A stretch of 64,000 nucleotides of DNA, from the IMG/VR virus record IMGVR_UViG_3300023700_000001; one strand, given 5' to 3'. Positions within the stretch are counted from its first letter, which is position 1; every line of letters starts with the position of its first letter. Made by a program: the position numbers and the translations under genes. Under the pieces are notes generated by a model that was given only the letters and a program-made list of their open reading frames with translations, made no database searches and was not told where the DNA came from. Origin of the DNA: a virus. Of this stretch, positions 25,556 through 59,460 are shown piece by piece.

Positions 25556-26208
25556 TGAAAAACTTTATACATCATGATTTTGCGAAACTAGTACGTGACA
25601 CAAGACCCGATGGAAAAAGAACATATCTGACTCCATCGGGTTTTTCGTATCCAAGCGTAACAACAATCACAGGACAAGCAACTGCAGAAGGAATTGCCAA
25701 ATGGCGACAGAGAGTTGGTGCTGAAGAAGCTAATCGAATCTCTGGACGAGCATCAGCACGTGGCACTCGGATTCACCAGTATTGTGAGGATTATCTTCGT
25801 GGAAATGTATTCGAAGCTGATATGTTTGACTTGGAGATGTTCAACTCTATCAAGTTCTTACTCGATCAGATTGATAACATCCACTGCTTAGAAACTCCAC
25901 TGTACTCTGATCACTTACAGGTTGCTGGAACGGTTGACTGTATCGCTGAGTTTCAAGGTAAGCTGACTGTTATTGACTTCAAGACAGCAAGCAAGCCTAA
26001 AGATCGAGAAGACATTTACCACTACTTTATGCAATGTGCAGCTTATGCTGTTGCATTTGAAGAACGTACTGGAATTCCTATTGGTCGTCTTGCAATTTTG
26101 ATGGCAGTTGAGAATGACGATCCACGATGGTTTATCGAGAAACGTGATAACTGGATTGGTCCATTCCGTAAGTTACGACTAGACTATAAGAATAAATACA
26201 ATATCTGA
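25555..26208 (+). CDS. PD-(D/E)XK family nuclease (RecB-like exonuclease)
   Basis: GTVDCI ... VIDFKTASK core. Start trimmed to the ATG at 25555 (TAATG overlap). Confidence 0.6.
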   Translation: MKNFIHHDFAKLVRDTRPDGKRTYLTPSGFSYPSVTTITGQATAEGIAKWRQRVGAEEANRISGRASARGTRIHQYCEDYLRGNVFEADMFDLEMFNSIKFLLDQIDNIHCLETPLYSDHLQVAGTVDCIAEFQGKLTVIDFKTASKPKDREDIYHYFMQCAAYAVAFEERTGIPIGRLAILMAVENDDPRWFIEKRDNWIGPFRKLRLDYKNKYNI

Positions 26209-26209
26209 T

Positions 26210-26238
26210 TTGCCTTGCAAGAAATTGTAGAGTATAAT
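26210..26238 (+). promoter_or_regulatory. sigma70-type promoter of the tmRNA gene
   Basis: TTGCCT, 17-nt spacer, TATAAT, immediately after the nuclease stop codon. Confidence 0.65.
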
Positions 26239-26249
26239 TAGAGTTATTG

Positions 26250-26309
26250 CTGTATGAAGCAAAGAGAAAAGTGTTCTGGACGCGGGTTCGACTCCCGCCA
26301 TCTCCACCA
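26250..26309 (+). other. tmRNA acceptor piece (5' end approximate)
   Basis: T-arm GCGGG-TTCGACT-CCCGC at 26282-26298. CATCTCC at 26299-26305. Discriminator A at 26306. Encoded CCA at 26307-26309. Confidence 0.8.
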
Positions 26310-26385
26310 AAAGTGTATTAGTGCAGAGTGTACCTGTTAAACAAAGCCTGAAGACGTTCGGGAGTTCGGCTAGTATACTTTTGAT

Positions 26386-26526
26386 GGGGATGCCATGGTT
26401 TCGACAGGGCAACAAGTAAACAAGTGGACAGCACGGTAGGCGATGACCGTAAATCAAGCAAACTAAGTAAATGCAAACGATAATGTTTGGGCTCTTGCAG
26501 CGTAAGCTGACTTGACCTGAGGTTTC
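26386..26526 (+). other. tmRNA coding piece (3' end approximate)
   Basis: Starts GGGGATG (pairs with CATCTCC), then CCATGGTTTCGACAGGG. Contains the tag frame. Confidence 0.75.
26473..26505 (+). other. tmRNA tag reading frame ANDNVWALAA-stop
   Basis: GCA AAC GAT AAT GTT TGG GCT CTT GCA GCG TAA. Confidence 0.75.
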
Positions 26527-26570
26527 GCTGACTGTCCTTATTACCCAATCAGTCAGCACTTTTAATTTTA
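26527..26570. terminator. hairpin terminator shared by ssrA (+) and the GIY-YIG gene (-)
   Basis: GCTGACTG, 15-nt loop, CAGTCAGC, then ACTTTTAATTTTA. The stop codon of the minus-strand ORF lies in the loop. Confidence 0.55.
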
Positions 26571-26944
26571 TTCGGTATACCTTTACGTGCCGATGGTTTA
26601 CCGAGTTTAGCTAACCTTAGTTTTTCTCGCTGTTCCATTGACATCGGTTTACCTTTGTTGGAAGCTGGAGTACCCTTCTTTCGACCATTTTTAAGATTGT
26701 AGTATCGTTTACCATATTCAGAATCTTTGATCATAGCTAACAGTCTAGCTTCTTCTTTTCTAGCTAAGGCTCTATTATCAAACATTTTGAGTATTTTACG
26801 AGTAAAATCATTTGGTCTATATTGTTGTTCGCCATTAAACCATCTAGATGAAGACACATAACCATCTTCATCGGAACCTTCGTGCATTCCAATATAGAAC
26901 ATTTTTCGGTTCTTATCGAACCATAGGTAAGTAAAGTATTGCAT
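26549..26944 (-). CDS. GIY-YIG homing endonuclease (Seg-like, free-standing)
   Basis: N-terminal YLWFDKNRKMFYIGMH...GYVSSS. C-terminal basic NUMOD3-like repeats (SMEQREKLRLAKLGK). The only minus-strand gene in this block. Confidence 0.7.
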   Translation of the reverse strand: MQYFTYLWFDKNRKMFYIGMHEGSDEDGYVSSSRWFNGEQQYRPNDFTRKILKMFDNRALARKEEARLLAMIKDSEYGKRYYNLKNGRKKGTPASNKGKPMSMEQREKLRLAKLGKPSARKGIPNKIKSAD

Positions 26945-27012
26945 ATTTTCTCCAAGATATGTAATTATTTAGTAAAAGCAAACTTTTAGGTTTGCGTTAA
27001 TTGAGGATAATT

Positions 27013-27276
27013 ATGAACGTTACACCGTTAAAAGATAGAGTTCTTGTTGCAGAGAACAAACGTGAGAACACTACTGAATCTGGTATTGTTTTACAAGGCG
27101 CAGGATTCGATCAATCAAAATCTGGCACTGTTTTAGCCATTGGTCCAGAAGTCACAGATGTTAAAGTTGGCGATGTGATTTATCTTGAGTGGAATAAAGC
27201 AGCAGTTGTTAAGATTGGTGATGCTCAACGTGTTATCATCAAACAAGAAAACATTGTAGCCGTATTGGAACAATGA
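27013..27276 (+). CDS. groES: co-chaperonin GroES
   Basis: 87 aa with PLKDRVLV, ESGIVL, GTVLAIGP and VKVGDVI motifs. GAGGA upstream of the ATG at 27013. Confidence 0.85.
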   Translation: MNVTPLKDRVLVAENKRENTTESGIVLQGAGFDQSKSGTVLAIGPEVTDVKVGDVIYLEWNKAAVVKIGDAQRVIIKQENIVAVLEQ

Positions 27277-27779: not shown

Positions 27780-27955
27780 AACATTTAATCGCATTCGTAT
27801 TAGCAGCATTCGCATTCTCTGCATTCGCTACTGAAGTCGCTAAGGCTCCAACTAATCAGACTAATTGTGTCACTAAGGACAAGAAAGGTAATTGCCCTCC
27901 AGCACCTAAGTCACCAAAGCCAACTCCAAAGAAGAAGGCTGAAGACAAGAAGTAA
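27776..27955 (+). CDS. small secreted Lys/Pro-rich protein, 59 aa
   Basis: Signal peptide MKHLIAFVLAAFAFSAFA. ATGA and TAATG overlaps. Translated by hand. Confidence 0.5.
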   Translation: MKHLIAFVLAAFAFSAFATEVAKAPTNQTNCVTKDKKGNCPPAPKSPKPTPKKKAEDKK

Positions 27956-28377
27956 TGTCTACAATTTTGATTATGGGTCTTCCAGGTTCTGGTAAGACAA
28001 CTTTGGCAGAACACTTGCAGCAGAGAATATGGGAAGACGGTAGAACCTGTGCTTGGTTCAATGCTGATAAAGTTCGTGAGCAGTACGAAGACTGGGACTT
28101 TAGTGAAGCTGGTCGTATACGTCAAAGTATACGAATGAGAGATCTAGCTAAAAACGCATCCACAGATTATGTTATATGTGACTTTGTAGCTCCAACGCCA
28201 GAGATTCGTGATTTATTCAGTGCTGACGTTACTATATGGGTTGACACTATTGATGTTGGTAGGTTTGAAGACACCAATAAGATTTTTGTGGAACCAGATA
28301 GATATGATCATAGAGTTCTTACACAAGATGCTGATAACTGGAGTGAAGTTATATGGAAAGCACTAAAAGAAGTTTAG
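27955..28377 (+). CDS. adenylylsulfate (APS) kinase-like P-loop kinase
   Basis: GLPGSGKTT. FNADKVR...DFSEAGRIRQSIRMRDLAK parallels LDGDxxR...FSxxDRxENIRR. Confidence 0.55.
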   Translation: MSTILIMGLPGSGKTTLAEHLQQRIWEDGRTCAWFNADKVREQYEDWDFSEAGRIRQSIRMRDLAKNASTDYVICDFVAPTPEIRDLFSADVTIWVDTIDVGRFEDTNKIFVEPDRYDHRVLTQDADNWSEVIWKALKEV

Positions 28378-28562
28378 TCAAAACTGTTAGTTGGCGTCTA
28401 ACTGGAAGTTTTAGTACATTTTTGATAACTTATCTAATATCAGGAAACTTTGCCATTGCTAGCTCAGTGGCTCTGGTTCAGATTACAGCAAACACTATTC
28501 TATACTTCATCCACGAAAGACTCTGGAATAGAGTCTCTTGGGGTCTAGAGAATCCTAAATAA
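28353..28562 (+). CDS. DUF2061 membrane protein
   Basis: KTVSWRLTGS ... ERLWNRVSWG with two TM helices. Confidence 0.6.
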   Translation: MESTKRSLVKTVSWRLTGSFSTFLITYLISGNFAIASSVALVQITANTILYFIHERLWNRVSWGLENPK

Positions 28563-28963: not shown

Positions 28964-29569
28964 ATGCGCTTATACCGTATATACATTCCGTTCATATTAT
29001 TGGCGTTGAGTTTGACTCTTATTGTCAAATCAACTTTTACTGAAACAGTTAGTCTCACGATTAAGATGTCTCAGTTAACAAAAGAGTCGCAGCAACAAGT
29101 GAAGTGCCTTGCTGATAACATCTACCATGAAGCTGGGTTTGAACCAGAAGATGGTAAGGTTGCAGTAGCTTTGGTTACACTCAATCGTCTACAAGATCCT
29201 AGGTATCCAAAAGATATTTGCTCTGTAGTGAAACAAAGAGTAAAATCAACATGTCAGTTCTCTTGGTTCTGCCAGCGCGTAAAAGCTAAAAATGAATCAG
29301 TTTATGAAGATGCTTTAGAAATTGCACTTCGAGTTTTCGCTAACTACGAAACTACAACAGACATCACAAATGGTGCTCTGTTTTATCATGCTGATTACGT
29401 CAACCCTCGTTGGCGTGGATTAGAAAAGACTACTGTAATTGGTAGACATATATTTTATAAAGAAAGCGAACGATACTATGATGCAAAAGATGAATCTCCA
29501 ACTAAAGGAAGAAAGCTCTCGACACGCATTCTACCTGATGATGGAAGAAATTTCACTCAATACCGTTAA
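28964..29569 (+). CDS. SleB-like cell wall hydrolase with N-terminal membrane anchor
   Basis: CLADNIYHEAG, VALVTLNR, CQFSWFC and ALFYHADYVNPRW motifs. Confidence 0.7.
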   Translation: MRLYRIYIPFILLALSLTLIVKSTFTETVSLTIKMSQLTKESQQQVKCLADNIYHEAGFEPEDGKVAVALVTLNRLQDPRYPKDICSVVKQRVKSTCQFSWFCQRVKAKNESVYEDALEIALRVFANYETTTDITNGALFYHADYVNPRWRGLEKTTVIGRHIFYKESERYYDAKDESPTKGRKLSTRILPDDGRNFTQYR

Positions 29570-30035
29570 AGGTGCTGTTGAGTGGATCTTTGAAGCTAAC
29601 TTCGGTGAAGAAAAACCAGAGTTACTAAACTTGATTATTACATCTCCAGGTGGTGACCTGAATGCTGCGTTTGCGTTAATTGACGTAATGCGTGGGTCTT
29701 CTATCCCAGTGCGAACAATCGGTCTTGGACAAATTGCTTCTGCTGGACTTATGATTTTCATCGCTGGTGATAAAGGGATGCGAATTCTTACTCCCAATAC
29801 ATCTATCCTGAGTCATCAGTACTCGTGGGGTGCCTTTGGTAAAGAACATGAACTTTTTGCTACAGTTAAAGAATTCGATTTAACAACTAAGAAAATGACT
29901 GCTCACTATAAAAAGTGTACAGGACTTTCTGAAAAACAAATTCGTGATGTGCTCTTGCCTCCACAGGATATTTGGCTGAGCCCATCCGAAGCTAAAAAGT
30001 TAGGAATCTGCGATGACGTTAAGGAACTTTCTTAA
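29478..30035 (+). CDS. clpP: ClpP-family serine protease
   Basis: ITSPGG. Ser in GQIASAG, His in SILSHQ and Asp in PQDIW, in order. Start uncertain (29478, 29490 or 29538). Overlaps the 3' end of the SleB gene. Confidence 0.75.
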   Translation: MMQKMNLQLKEESSRHAFYLMMEEISLNTVKGAVEWIFEANFGEEKPELLNLIITSPGGDLNAAFALIDVMRGSSIPVRTIGLGQIASAGLMIFIAGDKGMRILTPNTSILSHQYSWGAFGKEHELFATVKEFDLTTKKMTAHYKKCTGLSEKQIRDVLLPPQDIWLSPSEAKKLGICDDVKELS

Positions 30036-53223: not shown

Positions 53224-56200
53224 ATGATTGATTTCAATACCGAACCGTATAATGATGACTACGACGAGAACAAGAAGTTCTATCGTATCTTGTATCGTCC
53301 GTCGTTTGCTGTTCAGGCTCGTGAACTTACTCAGATGCAGACCATTCTGCAGAATCAGATTTCTCGACATGGTGATGCCATCTTCAAGCAAGGTGCAATG
53401 GTTATCCCTGGACAGGCAAGCGTAGAGACACTGACACAACCGAACAAAGGTTCTGATTATGTTAAACTGCAACCAATCTATAATGGCGTTGCAGTTCAAA
53501 CATTTCTGACTGCTCTGCAAGGTAAAACTATTGTTGGTTCTTCTGGCGTAACAGCACAAGTCTTTAAGATTCAAGATGCTGAAGGTACAGATCCAACTAC
53601 ACTGTATGTTCGTTACACTACAACTGGTTCTAACAACACTACTAAAACTTTCTCTGATTCAGAAGTTATCACTACTGAAGATGGCGCGTACTCATTCCAA
53701 GCAGCTTCTTCTGCTTCTGTAGGTAAAGGTTCTTTAGCTACTATCGCTCGTGGTGTTTACTACATCAACAAACATTTCTGTTTAGTCGAAGAACAGTCTA
53801 TCGTTCTAGAGAAATACTCTAACACACCAACATATCGTGTTGGTTTAGTTGTCACTGAGTCACTGGTAACTCCAGAATCAGACGAGACACTATTGGATAA
53901 CGCACAGAACAGCTACAACTATGCTGCTCCAGGTGCTCATCGTTACTATATGGATCTAACATTGACAAAGTTGTCAGTGGATTCTGTAACTGATACTAAC
54001 TTCATCGAATTGATTCGTGTTGTTGACGGTAACATTAAAACTATCGTAGAAAAAACAGATTACTCTCTATTGGGTGAGGAGCTTGCTCGTCGTACAATGG
54101 ATGAGTCTGGTGATTACACTGTACGCGAGTTTGCATTAGATGTTCGTGAACACCGTAACAACGATCGTGGTGCTTGGCTACAAAACACATCATACTTGTA
54201 TGGTGATATTGTAACCAATGGTGGCTATACTTACGTTGCTAAGAACTCTGGCACATCTGTTACTACTGCTCCAACTCACACTTCTAATACAGCATATGAC
54301 GGTCCAGGTTCTACTGGTATTAAATGGGAGTTCACAACAACTCCAGTCTATAATCGTGGTATCTACAAAACAGGTGATGCTGGTAAACTAGCCATCGGTT
54401 TAGAGCCAGGAAAAGCATATGTCAATGGTTGGGAAATCCAGAAAGATTCTACAACTTATCTAGAAGTCAACAAAGCACGTGACTACGCTCAGGCTTTGGG
54501 TAGCATCATCCAACCAGCGGTTGGTAACTATGTACTTGTTACGAACGTAAACAACCTACCTCCAGTTGATACTCTAGCCACAATTTCTTTACGTCAGAAC
54601 ATTACAGGCACTTCTGTTGGTACAGCACAAGGTTCTGAAATCGGTACTGCCCGTGTTCGCATTATGGAATGGGATTCTGGCGCAACATACGGTTCTACTG
54701 CTGTCTACAAACTTAGTTTGTTTGACGTTCAAATGAATAGTGGTTATAGCTTTAACCGTGATGTTAAGTCATTCTACTATGCTGGAGCGAGTGCGTACTT
54801 GAGCTTCAGTGCTGATATTAACCCAATCTGGTATCAACTACCAAACTCTTCTGTAACTGCTTCTTCTACAACTGTAACAGGTGTGGGTACTGCATTCTTG
54901 ACAGACTTGAAGGTTAATGACTTAATTCTCATCGGTGATAGCAACTACCGTCGCGTTACGGCAATTGCTGATAACGGTTCATTGACTATTGATTCTGTTT
55001 TGTCTATTGCAACAGGCGTTTCAATTAAGAGAGCCACTACTCAAATTCTCGAAGCTAACAATACTAGCTTGGTATTCCCATTAGCGAACTATGCTGTTCG
55101 CGCAATGCGTGGTGCTGGTAACTCTGGTGTTAACAACACAACTTATACTTGCTACCAAAAATTCACACAGACTGCTTCTGGTACAACTTTGTCTCTAAGC
55201 ACTTCTGGAACTTTTGCTTCTGCGTCTGGAAATACTAACTACATCGTAGTTGATAATAACAACGGCACTTACGGTGGTACTGTTATTAACCCAGTGTCTA
55301 TTGTTCCTACTGGTTCTACTTGCGTTATTACATTACCTGCAAACCAATCTGGTCACTCTATGACTGTTATTGCAGCTGTTACACGTAACGGTTCTGGCTA
55401 TGAAAAGACTAAGACTCTAACATCAGCTACTGAAACATTTACTACTGCTGCTTTAGCTCAACAGTCTACTGTTTATCTTGACAAGGCAGACGTATCTCGT
55501 ATCATCTCTATCAAGATGGCACCAGCTGTTGCATTCGGTTCTACTCCTACTTCTGCTCAATATACATTGGATATCTCTGATCGTTATGAGTTTGATAATG
55601 GACAGCGCAGCACCCACTATGACTGGGGTCGTTTGAACTTGAAGCCATCTTTTGCTGCTCCTTCAAACCCTATCCAAGTTGTGTACGAATACTTCACTCA
55701 CGGTGTTGGTGATTACTTTGACGTAAACTCTTATAGCAGCATCGACTACAGTGAGATTCCACAGCTACTTCGTGACTCTATCGACTACCGCCCTCGTGTA
55801 GCGGATAAGAGCGCAGGTTCTGCTAAAAACTTCGTTAGCACTAATGCTTCTGTTACTGGTCTACCAAAGCGCGGTGAAAACATTAGCTCAGATTACAGCT
55901 ATTACCTAGCACGTAAAGATAAGATCGCTATCGATAAAAACGGTAAGTTCTTTGACATCGTTGGTGTTCCATCCATTAATCCAGGCGACCCTGCAGACCC
56001 ATCTTTGGGTATGGTATTGTATAATATCGAACTACAACCATATACATTCGGTGCTTCTACAGACAACGTTAAAGTTAACAAGATTGAGAACAAGCGTTAC
56101 ACAATGCGTGACATTGGTAAACTAGAATCTCGTATCAATAACTTAGAGTACTACACTTCTCTTTCTCTATTAGAACAAGAGACTCAGTCTTTGAAGATTA

Positions 56201-59200
56201 CTGATTCTACTGGTATGGATAGAATGAAGAACGGCTTCATTGTAGACAACTTTACTGGTAACAATATCGGTGACGGTTCTTCTAAAGATTACTTCTGCTC
56301 TATCGATATGGAGAATGGACAACTACGCCCATTCTATACTTCTCATAACGTAAACCTCCTAGAGAAGAATTCTAACTCATCTCAACGTAGTGCAGCTAAC
56401 TACCAATTGAACGGTGATATTATTACATTGCCTATCATCGATACACCAGTATTGGTTAAGCAAGAATACGCGTCTCGTTTGGAAAACATTAACCCGTTTG
56501 CCATCTACACATTCTTGGGTAATGTAAATATTAACCCACCTTCTGATGACTGGTTCGAGACAACTCGCTTACCAGATATCGTTCAGCAAGTAGAAGGTAA
56601 CTACAATACTATCAAGCAACTAGCCGAAAAGTCTGGTATTCTTGGTACAGTTTGGGGATCTTGGAACACTGAATGGATTGGTACACCAGTTTCTAAGGGT
56701 GCTGAGACATTAACTAACAACAATGCTTCTAGAGACAAACTTAACTCTATTGCTGGTAACTGGTCTTCTAACGGTGGTTATAACCTTAGAAGCGTTAAGG
56801 TTGAAAACTTCGCTACACCAATTGGTCAATCTCGTACTGGTGTTAAGACTAGCGTTGCTGTTAAGACAGACTATGAGACTGTAGCTGACCGAGTGGTTTC
56901 TTCTGCAGTTATTCCATACATCCGTTCTAGAAACATCTTGATTCAGACTAAGAGCCTGAAGCCTTCTACACGTTTCTATGCTTACTTCGATGACATCGAT
57001 GTTAATGCCTATGTTACTCCATCTACTAAGATGGTTTACACTGCAAACTCTGGCACATTCGATATCACTACAAACGTAGGTGGTTCTGCTTCTGAAACTA
57101 AGCGCCGTATCGGTGGTGATTCTCAGATCTGTTTGAACCGTGGTGATGTTATCACAAACAGCGCTGGAACAGCTTCTGCCGTAGTTGTTGGTAAGTATGT
57201 CGACCCAGTAACTGGTGTTCTATCATTAGACCTACAGAACGTTATCGGTACATTCTCTGCAACTCAGACATTTACTGGTTCTGTTTCTGGTGCTTCTGGT
57301 ACAGTAGTTTCTATCTCTACTCCAACAACACTGACTACAAACGCTAGCGGTGAATTGTCGTTCATCTTCAACATCCCAGAAACAGACGCGATTCGTTTCC
57401 GTACTGGTGCTCGTGAGTTAAAACTTATCGACACATCTACATCTACAGGACAATGGTCTTCTCGTGGACGTGGTATCTATCGTGCTGAAGGTATCTTGGA
57501 TACTAAACAAGCTAACGTCAACGCTGTTCGTAATGCGGAGATCGTTAAAGAGATGGTTGGTCCAAATGATGATCCAGCTGCTCGTCAAACAATTTACCAG
57601 ACTAGCCAGAAAGTTCTTTCTGACACTGGTTGGTATGACCCTCTAGCGCAGTCATTCTTGGTTCAACAAAAAGGTGGCGCGTTCTTGACTGGCATCGACG
57701 TGTTCTTTGCAACTAAAGACGCAGCAATCCCAGTTAGCCTAGAAATCCGTGAGATGGTTAATGGTACACCTGGAAAGAACGTGCTAGCATTTAGCCATAC
57801 TGTTCTAAACCCAAGTCAAGTTAATCTGTCTTCTACTCTAGTGACTTTGGATGGTACAGACTACCCAACATACGATACTCCTACTCGTTTCACTTTCACA
57901 ACACCTGTGTATGTAGAAAACAACGTAGAGTACTGTTTCGTTCTTCAGTCTGATTCAAACAACTACAAAGTATGGATCTCTAACATGGGCGATACAATTC
58001 CAGGAACTTCTGGAAGAACTATCTCTTCACAGCCATATGCTGGTGTATTGTTCAAGTCTCAGAACGCATCTACTTGGACTCCAGATCAGAACCAAGATAT
58101 GAAGTTTACAATCTACCGCGCTCAGTTTGATACTAGCGTTGTCGGTAGCGTAGACTTCGTTAACGACGTAATCCCAAAGGATACTTTAGACACAGATCCA
58201 GTCCAGACAGTTTCTGGAACTAATACAGTTCGCGTATGGCACTATGACCATGGTATGTATGTTGGTTCTAGAGTAACTATCTCTGGTATTACTGCTGATG
58301 TTAACGGTATTCCTGCTTCTGAACTTAACGGTGACCATGTTATCGTTACTGCAGACTCTGACTGCTATACTTTCTCTGCTACGACTAATGCTACATCTAG
58401 CGGTTATAGTGGTGGTACTGCAGTTAAGGCTACAAGAAACATCACATATGATTTGATTAACCCTTCTCTGCAGATGCAAACTTTCTCTGATACTAAGTGT
58501 AGCTTTAACATTAAGACTACATCTGGAAAATCAGTTGATGGTGGTCAAACTCCTTATATTGCTGATACTACTGTATCTCCTTGCTTAGTTAAGGAAGATA
58601 CTTACTTCTATACTCCACGTGTTATCGCTTCTGAGATTAACGAAGTCAACTCTGCTCTTGGTGGCGCTAAGTCAGTCACATTTACTGCTCTTATCTCTAC
58701 AACTAACGATGCAGTTTCTCCAGTGATTGATACTGCTCGCGCGAGTTTAGTTGCTATCTCTAACTCTATCAATTCTCCTACTGAGGCTAATACCAACGTA
58801 GCTGCTTTGGACACTAAGACAATCTTCACTGGTTCTACTGGTGCTTATGCGTTCACTGCTACTGGCTTTACATCTACAAACTCTACAGTTCGTGGTTTGA
58901 TGGCAAGTATCGGTATCGGACGCTATGTAACTCTTGCTGGTTCTTCTAACTCTGGTAACAATGGTACATACCTAGTTACTAACTTTAGTGATAACGGTAC
59001 TACTGCAACTATCACTCTTGGTGGTTTCACTGGTACAGTTGAATCTGTTACTACTTCTGGTGTTAGCGTTGCTCTACGCGAATTGTTCTTTGACGAGATC
59101 GCTCCATCTGGTAGCTCAACTACAAGCAAGTATGTAACTACTCCAGTTAAGTTTAACTTTAGCTCTACATATATGAGAATCAAGTTCGCTGCTAATATCC

Positions 59201-59460
59201 CTAACGAAGCTGATATTAAGGTTTACTACAAGACTTCTCTGGGTGATAGCGCACAACTGGCTTCTACTAAATATACTCTGATCACACCAGATTCTACAAT
59301 CACTAAGGTAGAAAACGGTAACGATGCATTCTATGATGCAGACTACTCTTTAAGTGGTATGACACCATTTGATGGTATTGTAATTAAGATCGTTATGCAG
59401 TCTACAAATAGCTGTGCAGTTCCAGTAATTAGAGACTTGAGAATTATTGCCTGCCCATAA
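53224..59460 (+). CDS. giant virion structural protein, 2078 aa (DUF4815-like N-terminus)
   Basis: The uninterrupted ORF dwarfs all other frames. N-terminal FYRILYRPSFAVQARELTQMQTILQNQISRHGDAIFKQG recalls DUF4815-type phage structural proteins (from memory). Confidence 0.7.
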   Translation: MIDFNTEPYNDDYDENKKFYRILYRPSFAVQARELTQMQTILQNQISRHGDAIFKQGAMVIPGQASVETLTQPNKGSDYVKLQPIYNGVAVQTFLTALQGKTIVGSSGVTAQVFKIQDAEGTDPTTLYVRYTTTGSNNTTKTFSDSEVITTEDGAYSFQAASSASVGKGSLATIARGVYYINKHFCLVEEQSIVLEKYSNTPTYRVGLVVTESLVTPESDETLLDNAQNSYNYAAPGAHRYYMDLTLTKLSVDSVTDTNFIELIRVVDGNIKTIVEKTDYSLLGEELARRTMDESGDYTVREFALDVREHRNNDRGAWLQNTSYLYGDIVTNGGYTYVAKNSGTSVTTAPTHTSNTAYDGPGSTGIKWEFTTTPVYNRGIYKTGDAGKLAIGLEPGKAYVNGWEIQKDSTTYLEVNKARDYAQALGSIIQPAVGNYVLVTNVNNLPPVDTLATISLRQNITGTSVGTAQGSEIGTARVRIMEWDSGATYGSTAVYKLSLFDVQMNSGYSFNRDVKSFYYAGASAYLSFSADINPIWYQLPNSSVTASSTTVTGVGTAFLTDLKVNDLILIGDSNYRRVTAIADNGSLTIDSVLSIATGVSIKRATTQILEANNTSLVFPLANYAVRAMRGAGNSGVNNTTYTCYQKFTQTASGTTLSLSTSGTFASASGNTNYIVVDNNNGTYGGTVINPVSIVPTGSTCVITLPANQSGHSMTVIAAVTRNGSGYEKTKTLTSATETFTTAALAQQSTVYLDKADVSRIISIKMAPAVAFGSTPTSAQYTLDISDRYEFDNGQRSTHYDWGRLNLKPSFAAPSNPIQVVYEYFTHGVGDYFDVNSYSSIDYSEIPQLLRDSIDYRPRVADKSAGSAKNFVSTNASVTGLPKRGENISSDYSYYLARKDKIAIDKNGKFFDIVGVPSINPGDPADPSLGMVLYNIELQPYTFGASTDNVKVNKIENKRYTMRDIGKLESRINNLEYYTSLSLLEQETQSLKITDSTGMDRMKNGFIVDNFTGNNIGDGSSKDYFCSIDMENGQLRPFYTSHNVNLLEKNSNSSQRSAANYQLNGDIITLPIIDTPVLVKQEYASRLENINPFAIYTFLGNVNINPPSDDWFETTRLPDIVQQVEGNYNTIKQLAEKSGILGTVWGSWNTEWIGTPVSKGAETLTNNNASRDKLNSIAGNWSSNGGYNLRSVKVENFATPIGQSRTGVKTSVAVKTDYETVADRVVSSAVIPYIRSRNILIQTKSLKPSTRFYAYFDDIDVNAYVTPSTKMVYTANSGTFDITTNVGGSASETKRRIGGDSQICLNRGDVITNSAGTASAVVVGKYVDPVTGVLSLDLQNVIGTFSATQTFTGSVSGASGTVVSISTPTTLTTNASGELSFIFNIPETDAIRFRTGARELKLIDTSTSTGQWSSRGRGIYRAEGILDTKQANVNAVRNAEIVKEMVGPNDDPAARQTIYQTSQKVLSDTGWYDPLAQSFLVQQKGGAFLTGIDVFFATKDAAIPVSLEIREMVNGTPGKNVLAFSHTVLNPSQVNLSSTLVTLDGTDYPTYDTPTRFTFTTPVYVENNVEYCFVLQSDSNNYKVWISNMGDTIPGTSGRTISSQPYAGVLFKSQNASTWTPDQNQDMKFTIYRAQFDTSVVGSVDFVNDVIPKDTLDTDPVQTVSGTNTVRVWHYDHGMYVGSRVTISGITADVNGIPASELNGDHVIVTADSDCYTFSATTNATSSGYSGGTAVKATRNITYDLINPSLQMQTFSDTKCSFNIKTTSGKSVDGGQTPYIADTTVSPCLVKEDTYFYTPRVIASEINEVNSALGGAKSVTFTALISTTNDAVSPVIDTARASLVAISNSINSPTEANTNVAALDTKTIFTGSTGAYAFTATGFTSTNSTVRGLMASIGIGRYVTLAGSSNSGNNGTYLVTNFSDNGTTATITLGGFTGTVESVTTSGVSVALRELFFDEIAPSGSSTTSKYVTTPVKFNFSSTYMRIKFAANIPNEADIKVYYKTSLGDSAQLASTKYTLITPDSTITKVENGNDAFYDADYSLSGMTPFDGIVIKIVMQSTNSCAVPVIRDLRIIACP

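Follow-up and report, generated by a model that had tools for sequence, protein, structure and literature searches.

Can an uncultured T4-type phage carry a working two-piece transfer-messenger RNA (tmRNA, encoded by ssrA), and if so, to which tmRNA lineage does that RNA belong and what does it say about the host? The question was raised by a first-pass annotation of 64,000 nucleotides (nt) from IMG/VR virus record IMGVR_UViG_3300023700_000001, hereafter the window, which described a circularly permuted ssrA gene at positions 26210-26570, placed it on a T4-like phage, and named an alphaproteobacterium as the probable host. We conclude that the locus is likely to encode a functional two-piece tmRNA that is the phage's own and falls into the beta-type permuted lineage. 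Its carrier is an uncultured T4-type myovirus with a distant relationship to the myophages of Pelagibacter and OM43. The identity of the gene and of its carrier held up under analysis, but the alphaproteobacterial host did not. Loci used for comparison are cited below by L numbers.

Identification of a complete permuted tmRNA gene

ARAGORN made a single RNA-gene call in the window, a permuted tmRNA (tmRNA*) at 26217-26596 with the tag ANDNVWALAA. In Rfam, tmRNA_permuted (RF04321) was matched over its full length (model positions 1-213) with 146 bits (gathering score, 47; E = 8e-29), and beta_tmRNA (RF01850) reached 117.6 bits against a gathering score of 84 (E = 4e-35). Permuted detection with ARAGORN and the Rfam tmRNA models had both been proposed as checks in the first-pass annotation, and both bore out its two-piece gene. 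The match is far above chance and confirms that the permuted tmRNA gene is real.

As shown in Table 1, an acceptor piece ending in CCA is followed by an intervening sequence and then by a coding piece that starts with the acceptor 5' strand. The tRNA-like domain is complete, comprising a 7-bp acceptor stem with G3:U70, a T-arm, a D-loop analogue, discriminator A, and CCA, and both covariance models align it end to end. When the sequence was read directly, every listed element was found where the annotation had placed it. Only the position of the D-loop analogue (GGTTTCGACAGGG / GGUUUCGAC / GGTTTCGAC) needed refinement: it is present after GGGGATG as described, but it starts four bases (CCAT) further on rather than directly adjoining. 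A thermodynamic co-fold of the two pieces recovered the predicted 7-bp acceptor pairing, with the G3:U wobble formed by G26388 and U26303.

An A-rich leader ending in UAAAU lies within 26386-26472 and precedes the tag frame, which has an alanine resume codon, a hydrophobic (A/L)AA C-terminus, and a stop codon. The peptide that had been read from this frame, GCA...GCG UAA, is the same one that ARAGORN reported. The TTGCCT-17-TATAAT promoter proposed upstream of the gene was also found; its hexamers and spacing are conserved in L049, the closest relative, and the promoter region forms part of the Rfam beta_tmRNA model, to which the window aligns there. Transcription would start near A26246. Two minus-strand open reading frames (ORFs) that overlap the tmRNA gene, at 26179-26559 and 26318-26548, were considered and dismissed: a 5-nt difference in the length of the L049 intervening sequence would break their frames, and the pattern of conservation is typical of a structured RNA.

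Table 1. Coordinates of the tmRNA gene parts and of selected neighbouring genes, with identity to L049 where it was calculated
Feature	Position	Strand	Identity to L049	Details
Sigma-70-type promoter	26210..26238	+		TTGCCT 26210-26215, 17-nt spacer, TATAAT 26233-26238; 10 of 12 consensus matches
Acceptor piece, ~64 nt	26246..26309	+	98.6%	Rfam alignment, co-fold, covariation counts
Distal P2 helix, 3' strand	26248-26253	+		pairs with 26428-26433
P2a, 3' strand	26272-26278	+		pairs with 26405-26411
T-arm GCGGG-TTCGACT-CCCGC	26282-26298	+		read directly
Acceptor 3' strand CATCTCC	26299-26305	+		followed by discriminator A26306 and encoded CCA 26307-26309
Intervening sequence, 76 nt	26310..26385	+	53.9%	between A26309 and G26386; predicted to be removed from precursor
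Coding piece, 5' part	26386..26472	+	95.4%	Rfam alignment, covariation
Acceptor 5' strand GGGGATG (GGGGAUG)	26386-26392	+		G26388 is G3 of G3:U70
P2a, 5' strand	26405-26411	+		coding piece
Distal P2 helix, 5' strand	26428-26433	+		coding piece
Hairpin CGGU-AGGCGAUG-ACCG	26434-26449	+		compensatory G-C to A-U change in L049
Tag frame	26473..26505	+	75.8%	resume codon GCA 26473-26475 to stop UAA 26503-26505; ANDNVWALAA (ARAGORN)
3' H-type pseudoknot and U-tract	26518..26571	+	53% (pseudoknot)	motif search, Rfam helix alignment
Pseudoknot S1	26518-26522 / 26536-26540	+		UGAGG / CCUUA
Pseudoknot S2	26527-26534 / 26550-26557	+		GCUGACUG / CAGUCAGC
U-rich tract ACUUUUAAUUUUAU	26558-26571	+		directly 3' of pseudoknot; likely transcription end
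Homing-endonuclease-like gene, 131 aa, free-standing	26549..26944	-		phrog_314, E = 2.6e-13
Cpn10 (GroES-like) gene	27001-27276			
ClpP-family serine protease homologue	29439..30035	+		Pfam CLP_protease, E = 4e-28

Covariation of the inter-piece helices

The first-pass annotation had stated that a lack of helices between the two pieces would speak against its reading. We counted covariation in homologues gathered from viral contigs and bacterial genomes, of which 19 distinct sequences were aligned after removal of their intervening sequences. Across these homologues, 96.8% of cells were paired, as compared to 40-60% with slid partners. Changes on both sides occurred at 13 pairs versus 3.6 expected from shuffles, and none of 500 shuffles reached 13. 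Double changes affected four of the six pairs in distal P2 and three of the seven in P2a (slid controls gave 1-4), and compensatory changes were present in distal P2, P2a, the T-arm, and the hairpin at 26434-26449. The acceptor stem is uninformative in this comparison because its invariance was imposed by the pattern used to search for homologues. Both P2 helices thus covary over the 19 homologues, and the two pieces appear to be held together by the acceptor stem and P2.

The hairpin reported after the gene exists at 26527-26557, but it is more than a terminator, as it forms stem 2 of an H-type pseudoknot that is conserved. A motif search found 13 of 13 pairs in the window, and scores of at least 12 were obtained with 59% of the relatives' real tails as opposed to 4% of shuffles. 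Both stems were recovered in the window and in most relatives, and by eye in the bacterial L066 group. In the Rfam alignment the region falls on a helix of the beta_tmRNA model, and it carries the CCUU...AC...AA loop. In L049, stem 2 is wholly different in sequence yet paired, so that it is fully compensated, and the loop motif is conserved.

The ends of the intervening sequence, AAAAGUGUAUUAG and CUAGUAUACUUUU, pair in the fold and extend the acceptor stem. Such an acceptor-extending stem formed in all 22 homologous intervening sequences that were folded, bacterial as well as viral, and in L049 its base is kept. Bacterial copies of the intervening sequence measure 30-32 nt and phage copies 30-200 nt.

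Some of the phage spacers have contents of their own. Those of L012 (6135-6340) and L061 (246-450; both sets of coordinates are approximate) are 200 nt long and contain a 62-codon ORF (MKLFAKTRDNQIVKV...) that stops at the TGA of a conserved TTTTGATGGGG junction, with two synonymous and two conservative changes between the copies. An unrelated 57-codon ORF begins inside the intervening sequence of L018. No PHROG family was matched by the spacer ORFs of L012, L061, or L018, which might be protein genes nested in the tmRNA spacer. In L037, the 119-nt intervening sequence of a permuted tmRNA holds a second T-arm-like element (GGGTTCGAATCCCAC).

Comparison with the closest relative

L049 is an IMG/VR contig that aligns collinearly with the window, with nucleotide identities of 76-90%, and the identities of individual parts of the tmRNA gene are given in Table 1. 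The tag frame differs at eight positions in 33 nt. Six codons are affected, of which five changed synonymously and one by a conservative Trp/Phe swap. Taken together, this is the pattern that would be expected for a structured RNA with a translated internal frame, and it speaks against both a pure decoy and a passenger in decay. The window gene looks functional because five of the six changed tag codons are synonymous.

A further relative, L061, has a mosaic tmRNA gene in which an acceptor piece and P2 of the L012/L015 type are joined to a tag frame and 3' pseudoknot identical to those of L049. This arrangement indicates recombination inside the tmRNA gene.

tmRNA subtype and host

In the Rfam procedure, members of a clan compete, such that lower-scoring members are suppressed and the best clan match is reported. 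For the window gene, beta_tmRNA was retained over the other clan members; alpha_tmRNA (RF01849) was not the best member, and an alpha match, if any, fell below beta and was suppressed. As a positive control, the identical procedure gave alpha_tmRNA as best for Methylophilales phage Melnitz. Among related viral permuted genes, 16 of 18 were beta-type.

We also scanned genomes for a pattern consisting of the permuted order, the window's acceptor stem, an intervening sequence of 20-50 nt, and the D-loop analogue TGGTTTCGAC. Six bacterial metagenome-assembled genomes matched this restrictive pattern, which is biased to beta-like genes and blind to long-spacer bacterial copies; all six were Gallionellaceae/Nitrosomonadales and none was alphaproteobacterial. 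The core of the window gene is only ~64-70% identical to the nearest bacterial genes found. Given a beta model as the best match, cellular matches that were all of Nitrosomonadales type, and a Melnitz control that returned alpha, we rejected the alphaproteobacterial affiliation and with it the host that had been called probable.

Naming a host from the tmRNA subtype was likewise dropped. Stenotrophomonas myophages have beta-type genes, and we take Stenotrophomonas itself to have a one-piece tmRNA. Melnitz is alpha-type with a non-alphaproteobacterial host, as it infects OM43 (PMC9004378). These mismatches make the subtype a weak host marker. The host is probably an aquatic proteobacterium, with a betaproteobacterial lineage somewhat favoured.

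Carrier phage and gene neighbourhood

The carrier is a T4-type myovirus, as the first-pass annotation had proposed. The window (40.8% G+C) encodes a gp32-type single-strand DNA-binding protein and the T4-type baseplate proteins gp5, gp6, gp7-like, gp48, and gp53-like, and a 2078-aa ORF (53224-59460) is located in the baseplate and tail-fibre region. Judged from gp6, the closest cultured phages are the Pelagibacter phages Mosig and HTVC008M and Melnitz, at ~42% amino-acid identity. A nucleotide search of deposited cultured phages with 14 kb around the gene returned no close relative.

Upstream of the tmRNA gene are genes for PhoH, a GH19 hydrolase, and a PD-(D/E)XK nuclease, in that order. Downstream are the homing-endonuclease-like gene on the other strand, Cpn10, an unknown ORF, a P-loop kinase, a cell-wall hydrolase, the ClpP homologue, and a GP88-family protein. 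The slot 3' of PhoH and the PD-(D/E)XK nuclease also holds a tmRNA gene in L049, L061, L055, L009, and Melnitz. The wider arrangement, with PhoH and the nuclease on one side of the tmRNA gene and the cell-wall hydrolase and ClpP on the other, recurs in the diverged viral contigs L049, L061, L055, L053, L036, and L009.

The endonuclease ORF faces the tmRNA gene in convergent orientation and runs with its final codons into the 3' hairpin of that gene; it is adjacent to the tmRNA gene and forms no part of it. The ORF is carried on an insertion of ~436 nt that collinear L049 lacks, and in L049 the Cpn10 ribosome-binding site comes immediately after the tmRNA 3' hairpin. In L036 (53% identity, convergent) and L058 (40%), homologues of the endonuclease likewise border the 3' end of the tmRNA gene. 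The endonuclease may explain the mosaic at the 3' end of the tmRNA gene, where identity to L049 drops from the tag on, beside the 436-nt insertion. By eye, the ORF has a GIY-YIG-like N-terminus and a NUMOD3-like motif, and its placement is reminiscent of that of segB within the tRNA cluster of T4.

The ClpP homologue shares 34% identity with E. coli ClpP, and the catalytic Ser, His, and Asp line up between the two. Its gene and that for Cpn10 both lie at most 3.5 kb from the tmRNA gene, and a ClpP homologue occurs 1-3.5 kb from the tmRNA gene in L049, L061, L055, L053, and L036 as well. The protease may be functionally linked to the tmRNA gene. No description of a phage tmRNA-ClpP module was found in the literature.

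Relative to L049, the window has a second specific insertion at 27957-28552. It bears the P-loop kinase (27955-28377; phrog_10255, E = 4.6e-25; APS-kinase-like in Pfam) and a hydrophobic-looking ORF of 69 aa (28353-28562). Elsewhere among the related viral contigs, GOLLD RNA (RF02032, 182-227 bits) was detected in L030 (120-579), L032 (562-1022), and L057 (752-1213), which have large adjoining tRNA arrays and beta-type permuted tmRNAs. Its presence hints at a freshwater (lake) origin and a shared translation-related RNA island.

Relation to known tmRNAs

The novelty implied by the first-pass annotation was overstated. According to a previous survey, ARAGORN identifies two-piece tmRNAs in 53 of 402 tmRNA-bearing phage genomes, of which 50 are marine or aquatic and which include the nearest cultured relatives of the window; permuted genes also occur in 17 of 47 Melnitz-like contigs (PMC9004378). 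Two-piece tmRNAs of aquatic T4-like phages are therefore published, and homologues are annotated in GenBank phage records. The window gene is a clean further example of a documented gene type and is not new in kind.

Its closest bacterial counterpart is the beta-type two-piece tmRNA (RF01850; Sharkady & Williams 2004, as cited in PMC9004378), whose family threshold it exceeds and with which it shares the permuted order. Gallionellaceae genes have an acceptor stem and D-loop analogue identical to those of the window. The bacterial beta type also shares the AGGCGA hairpin loop, the ANDxxxAxAA tag style, the 3' pseudoknot with its CCUU loop, and an intervening sequence that forms an acceptor-extending stem. 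Unlike the bacterial genes, the window gene resides on a lytic T4-type phage, its intervening sequence has 76 nt instead of 30-32 nt, and P2 has a purine-rich internal loop at its middle. Moreover, the U-tract directly follows the pseudoknot, whereas the bacterial model ends in a GC-rich terminator hairpin.

Melnitz and the Pelagibacter myophages are likewise aquatic T4-type myophages with a permuted tmRNA, an enlarged intervening sequence (142 nt in Melnitz), and an ANDN...ALAA tag. The ssrA gene of Melnitz occupies the same slot, with PhoH and the PD-(D/E)XK nuclease upstream and gp32 downstream. However, the Melnitz gene (L072 10985-11447) belongs to the alpha type (alpha_tmRNA, 106.7 bits) and has a glutamine riboswitch after it, while the window gene (26210-26571) is beta-type and lacks the riboswitch. 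The two cores are ~60% identical, and no ClpP homologue was present in the 45 kb of Melnitz that were examined. The occurrence of alpha- and beta-type ssrA in a shared slot suggests cassette replacement at a conserved site.

Cultured beta-type examples are provided by Stenotrophomonas phage Marzo (MZ326868) and other Menderavirus phages. Marzo is a myophage with an annotated and homologous tmRNA that ARAGORN calls as permuted (tmRNA*). It scores 94.6 bits with beta_tmRNA and 119 bits with tmRNA_permuted, and it has the same architecture and an acceptor stem identical to that of the window; approximately ten related GenBank records match the same region. Marzo nevertheless differs in phage backbone and in host, a gammaproteobacterium. 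Its gene forms part of a tRNA cluster instead of occupying the PhoH/nuclease slot, encodes a longer tag (VAANDDSYTVRIAA), and outside the tRNA-like domain is too diverged from the window for blastn.

Annotation of permuted phage tmRNAs is inconsistent, as several of the GenBank relatives are unannotated at this position or labelled tRNA-OTHER. In Marzo (L074), two overlapping ARAGORN calls, 2251-2568 and 2476-2850, are one standard and one permuted, and they span a cluster of tRNA-Pro, tRNA-Leu, tmRNA, and tRNA-Thr. The same double call appears in L032.

More distant systems include the two-piece tmRNA of Caulobacter crescentus (Keiler, Shapiro & Williams 2000, as cited in PMC9004378), which, unlike that of the window, is of the alpha lineage, cellular, and different in its pseudoknot complement. 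One-piece tmRNAs of mycobacteriophages, Bacillus phage G, and many IMG/VR contigs are also phage-borne but have the standard, non-permuted order; the window's 25-nt T-arm/acceptor sequence occurs in many viral contigs with standard gene order. Some one-piece phage tmRNAs, e.g., that of DS6A, are without a tag frame (PMC11915505).

Proposed mechanism and alternative explanations

The permuted gene of Caulobacter yields one precursor that becomes two base-paired RNAs that tag proteins, as has been validated experimentally. We drew on this established behaviour and on the conserved anatomy of the window gene to propose a mechanism; the fold, pairing, and covariation were computed here. Early in infection, host RNA polymerase would start from the promoter at 26210-26238 and continue to the U-tract after 26557, giving a precursor of ~320 nt. 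Host tRNA-processing enzymes would remove the intervening sequence, with RNase P cutting 5' of G26386 and 3' trimming to the CCA at 26309. The resulting acceptor piece of ~64 nt and coding piece of ~180 nt would remain joined by the acceptor stem and the two P2 helices. G3:U70 would direct charging with alanine by the host AlaRS and, with host SmpB and EF-Tu, the RNA would enter ribosomes stalled on broken messages. Translation would resume at GCA 26473, add ANDNVWALAA, and stop at UAA 26503, whereupon the ALAA C-terminus would route the product to ClpXP-type proteolysis, possibly together with the ClpP homologue that the phage itself encodes 3 kb downstream. The likely benefit is a high capacity for ribosome rescue during shutdown of host transcription and degradation of host nucleic acids.

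Several observations weigh against a functional tmRNA operating in this way. The co-fold suggested by the first-pass annotation recovered the acceptor stem, but its minimum-free-energy structure is without the canonical P2 helices and instead pairs 26267-26278 with the 3' tail. In the Rfam alignment, four mid-P2 model pairs are non-canonical in the window sequence. The P2 helices are accordingly taken from the covariance model and covariation, not from the minimum-free-energy fold. The final GC-rich terminator helix of the beta_tmRNA model is deleted in the window alignment, although this helix is a peripheral expression signal outside the functional RNA core. A simple terminator scan of the locus found no site; it missed the hairpin at 26527-26557 because of the 15-nt loop. 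No SmpB homologue was found in the window, which is only part of the genome, and function would therefore depend on a fit with the host's SmpB, AlaRS, and RNase P. Finally, the link to ClpP could be plain inherited synteny, and PHROGs rates the protein slightly better as a head maturation protease.

The same lack of SmpB in the window would oblige the phage RNA to compete for that of the host, which is also what a decoy or modulator would do by occupying SmpB, AlaRS, or stalled ribosomes and thereby damping or redirecting host trans-translation. There is precedent in the tag-frame-less tmRNA-like RNA of DS6A, reported to inhibit the endogenous tmRNA in E. coli (summarised in PMC11915505), and the tag of the window differs from that of the bacterial beta type (ANDNVWALAA versus ANDENFAMAA in L066). 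A pure decoy, however, would have no need of the codon pattern observed relative to L049, which fits a selected peptide, and the resume context, frame, stop codon, and ALAA end are all intact. We consider such a role improbable. Still harder to sustain, and in our view very improbable, is that the gene is a passenger acquired from a host, or an integration-site leftover, with no role in the phage life cycle. It is true that tmRNA genes are frequent integration targets and that fragments of them are found in prophages (PMC9004378, PMC11915505). The window gene is also clearly related to bacterial beta-type genes, but the divergence of its core from the nearest ones found implies that it was not recently captured. 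It is complete rather than a 3' fragment, and its carrier is a T4-type phage, a group that is strictly lytic. Compensatory changes, purifying selection, a conserved promoter of its own, and a slot that is kept in diverged phages with flanking proteins 39-100% identical all speak against a passenger.

The neighbouring endonuclease raises a different possibility, namely that the tmRNA gene is a homing target maintained by endonuclease-driven gene conversion rather than by any benefit to the phage. The endonuclease homologue lies exactly at the tmRNA 3' end in the window, is absent from L049, and abuts the gene in L036 and L058. Identity to L049 falls from 95% to 53-76% from the tag onward, with flanking genes at 76-90%, which is compatible with co-conversion, and in the mosaic gene of L061 the tag and tail of L049 are joined to a different type of acceptor piece. 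Yet most homologous loci, among them L049, L061, L055, and Melnitz, keep the tmRNA without the endonuclease, implying that the latter is not needed for persistence, and conversion accounts for mosaicism but not for structural and coding selection. An L036-like donor for the window's 3' tail was considered and set aside, as the tail is 64% identical to endonuclease-bearing L036 versus 56% to L049, a marginal difference. Maintenance by homing thus seems unlikely, and a functional phage tmRNA of the beta type is still the reading that we favour.

This reading could be extended. The tmRNA, with a tag variant of its own, may be one arm of a phage tag-and-degrade module. The other arm would be the ClpP homologue, whose catalytic residues are intact, with Cpn10 next to it, and these genes recur together in diverged phages. 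The tmRNA slot would then be an exchangeable site for alpha- and beta-type ssrA cassettes, where swaps aided by the homing endonuclease would fit the translation machinery of a new host. We advance this combination tentatively and regard it, as a whole, as rather doubtful.

Implications

Phage-borne tmRNAs are widespread, and what is known of tmRNA as such is unchanged by this locus. It does provide a clean, apparently functional two-piece example with a close natural comparator in L049. Comparison of the two shows constraint on the tRNA-like domain, P2, and the tag peptide, and freedom to change in the intervening sequence and the pseudoknot stems. The recurring neighbourhood of ClpP and a homing endonuclease yields two testable ideas. 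The comparison with the Melnitz slot, together with the Stenotrophomonas phages, warns against predicting a host from the tmRNA subtype, and the presence of alpha-type and beta-type ssrA in one slot is relevant to the published argument that host switching can be read from the ssrA lineage.

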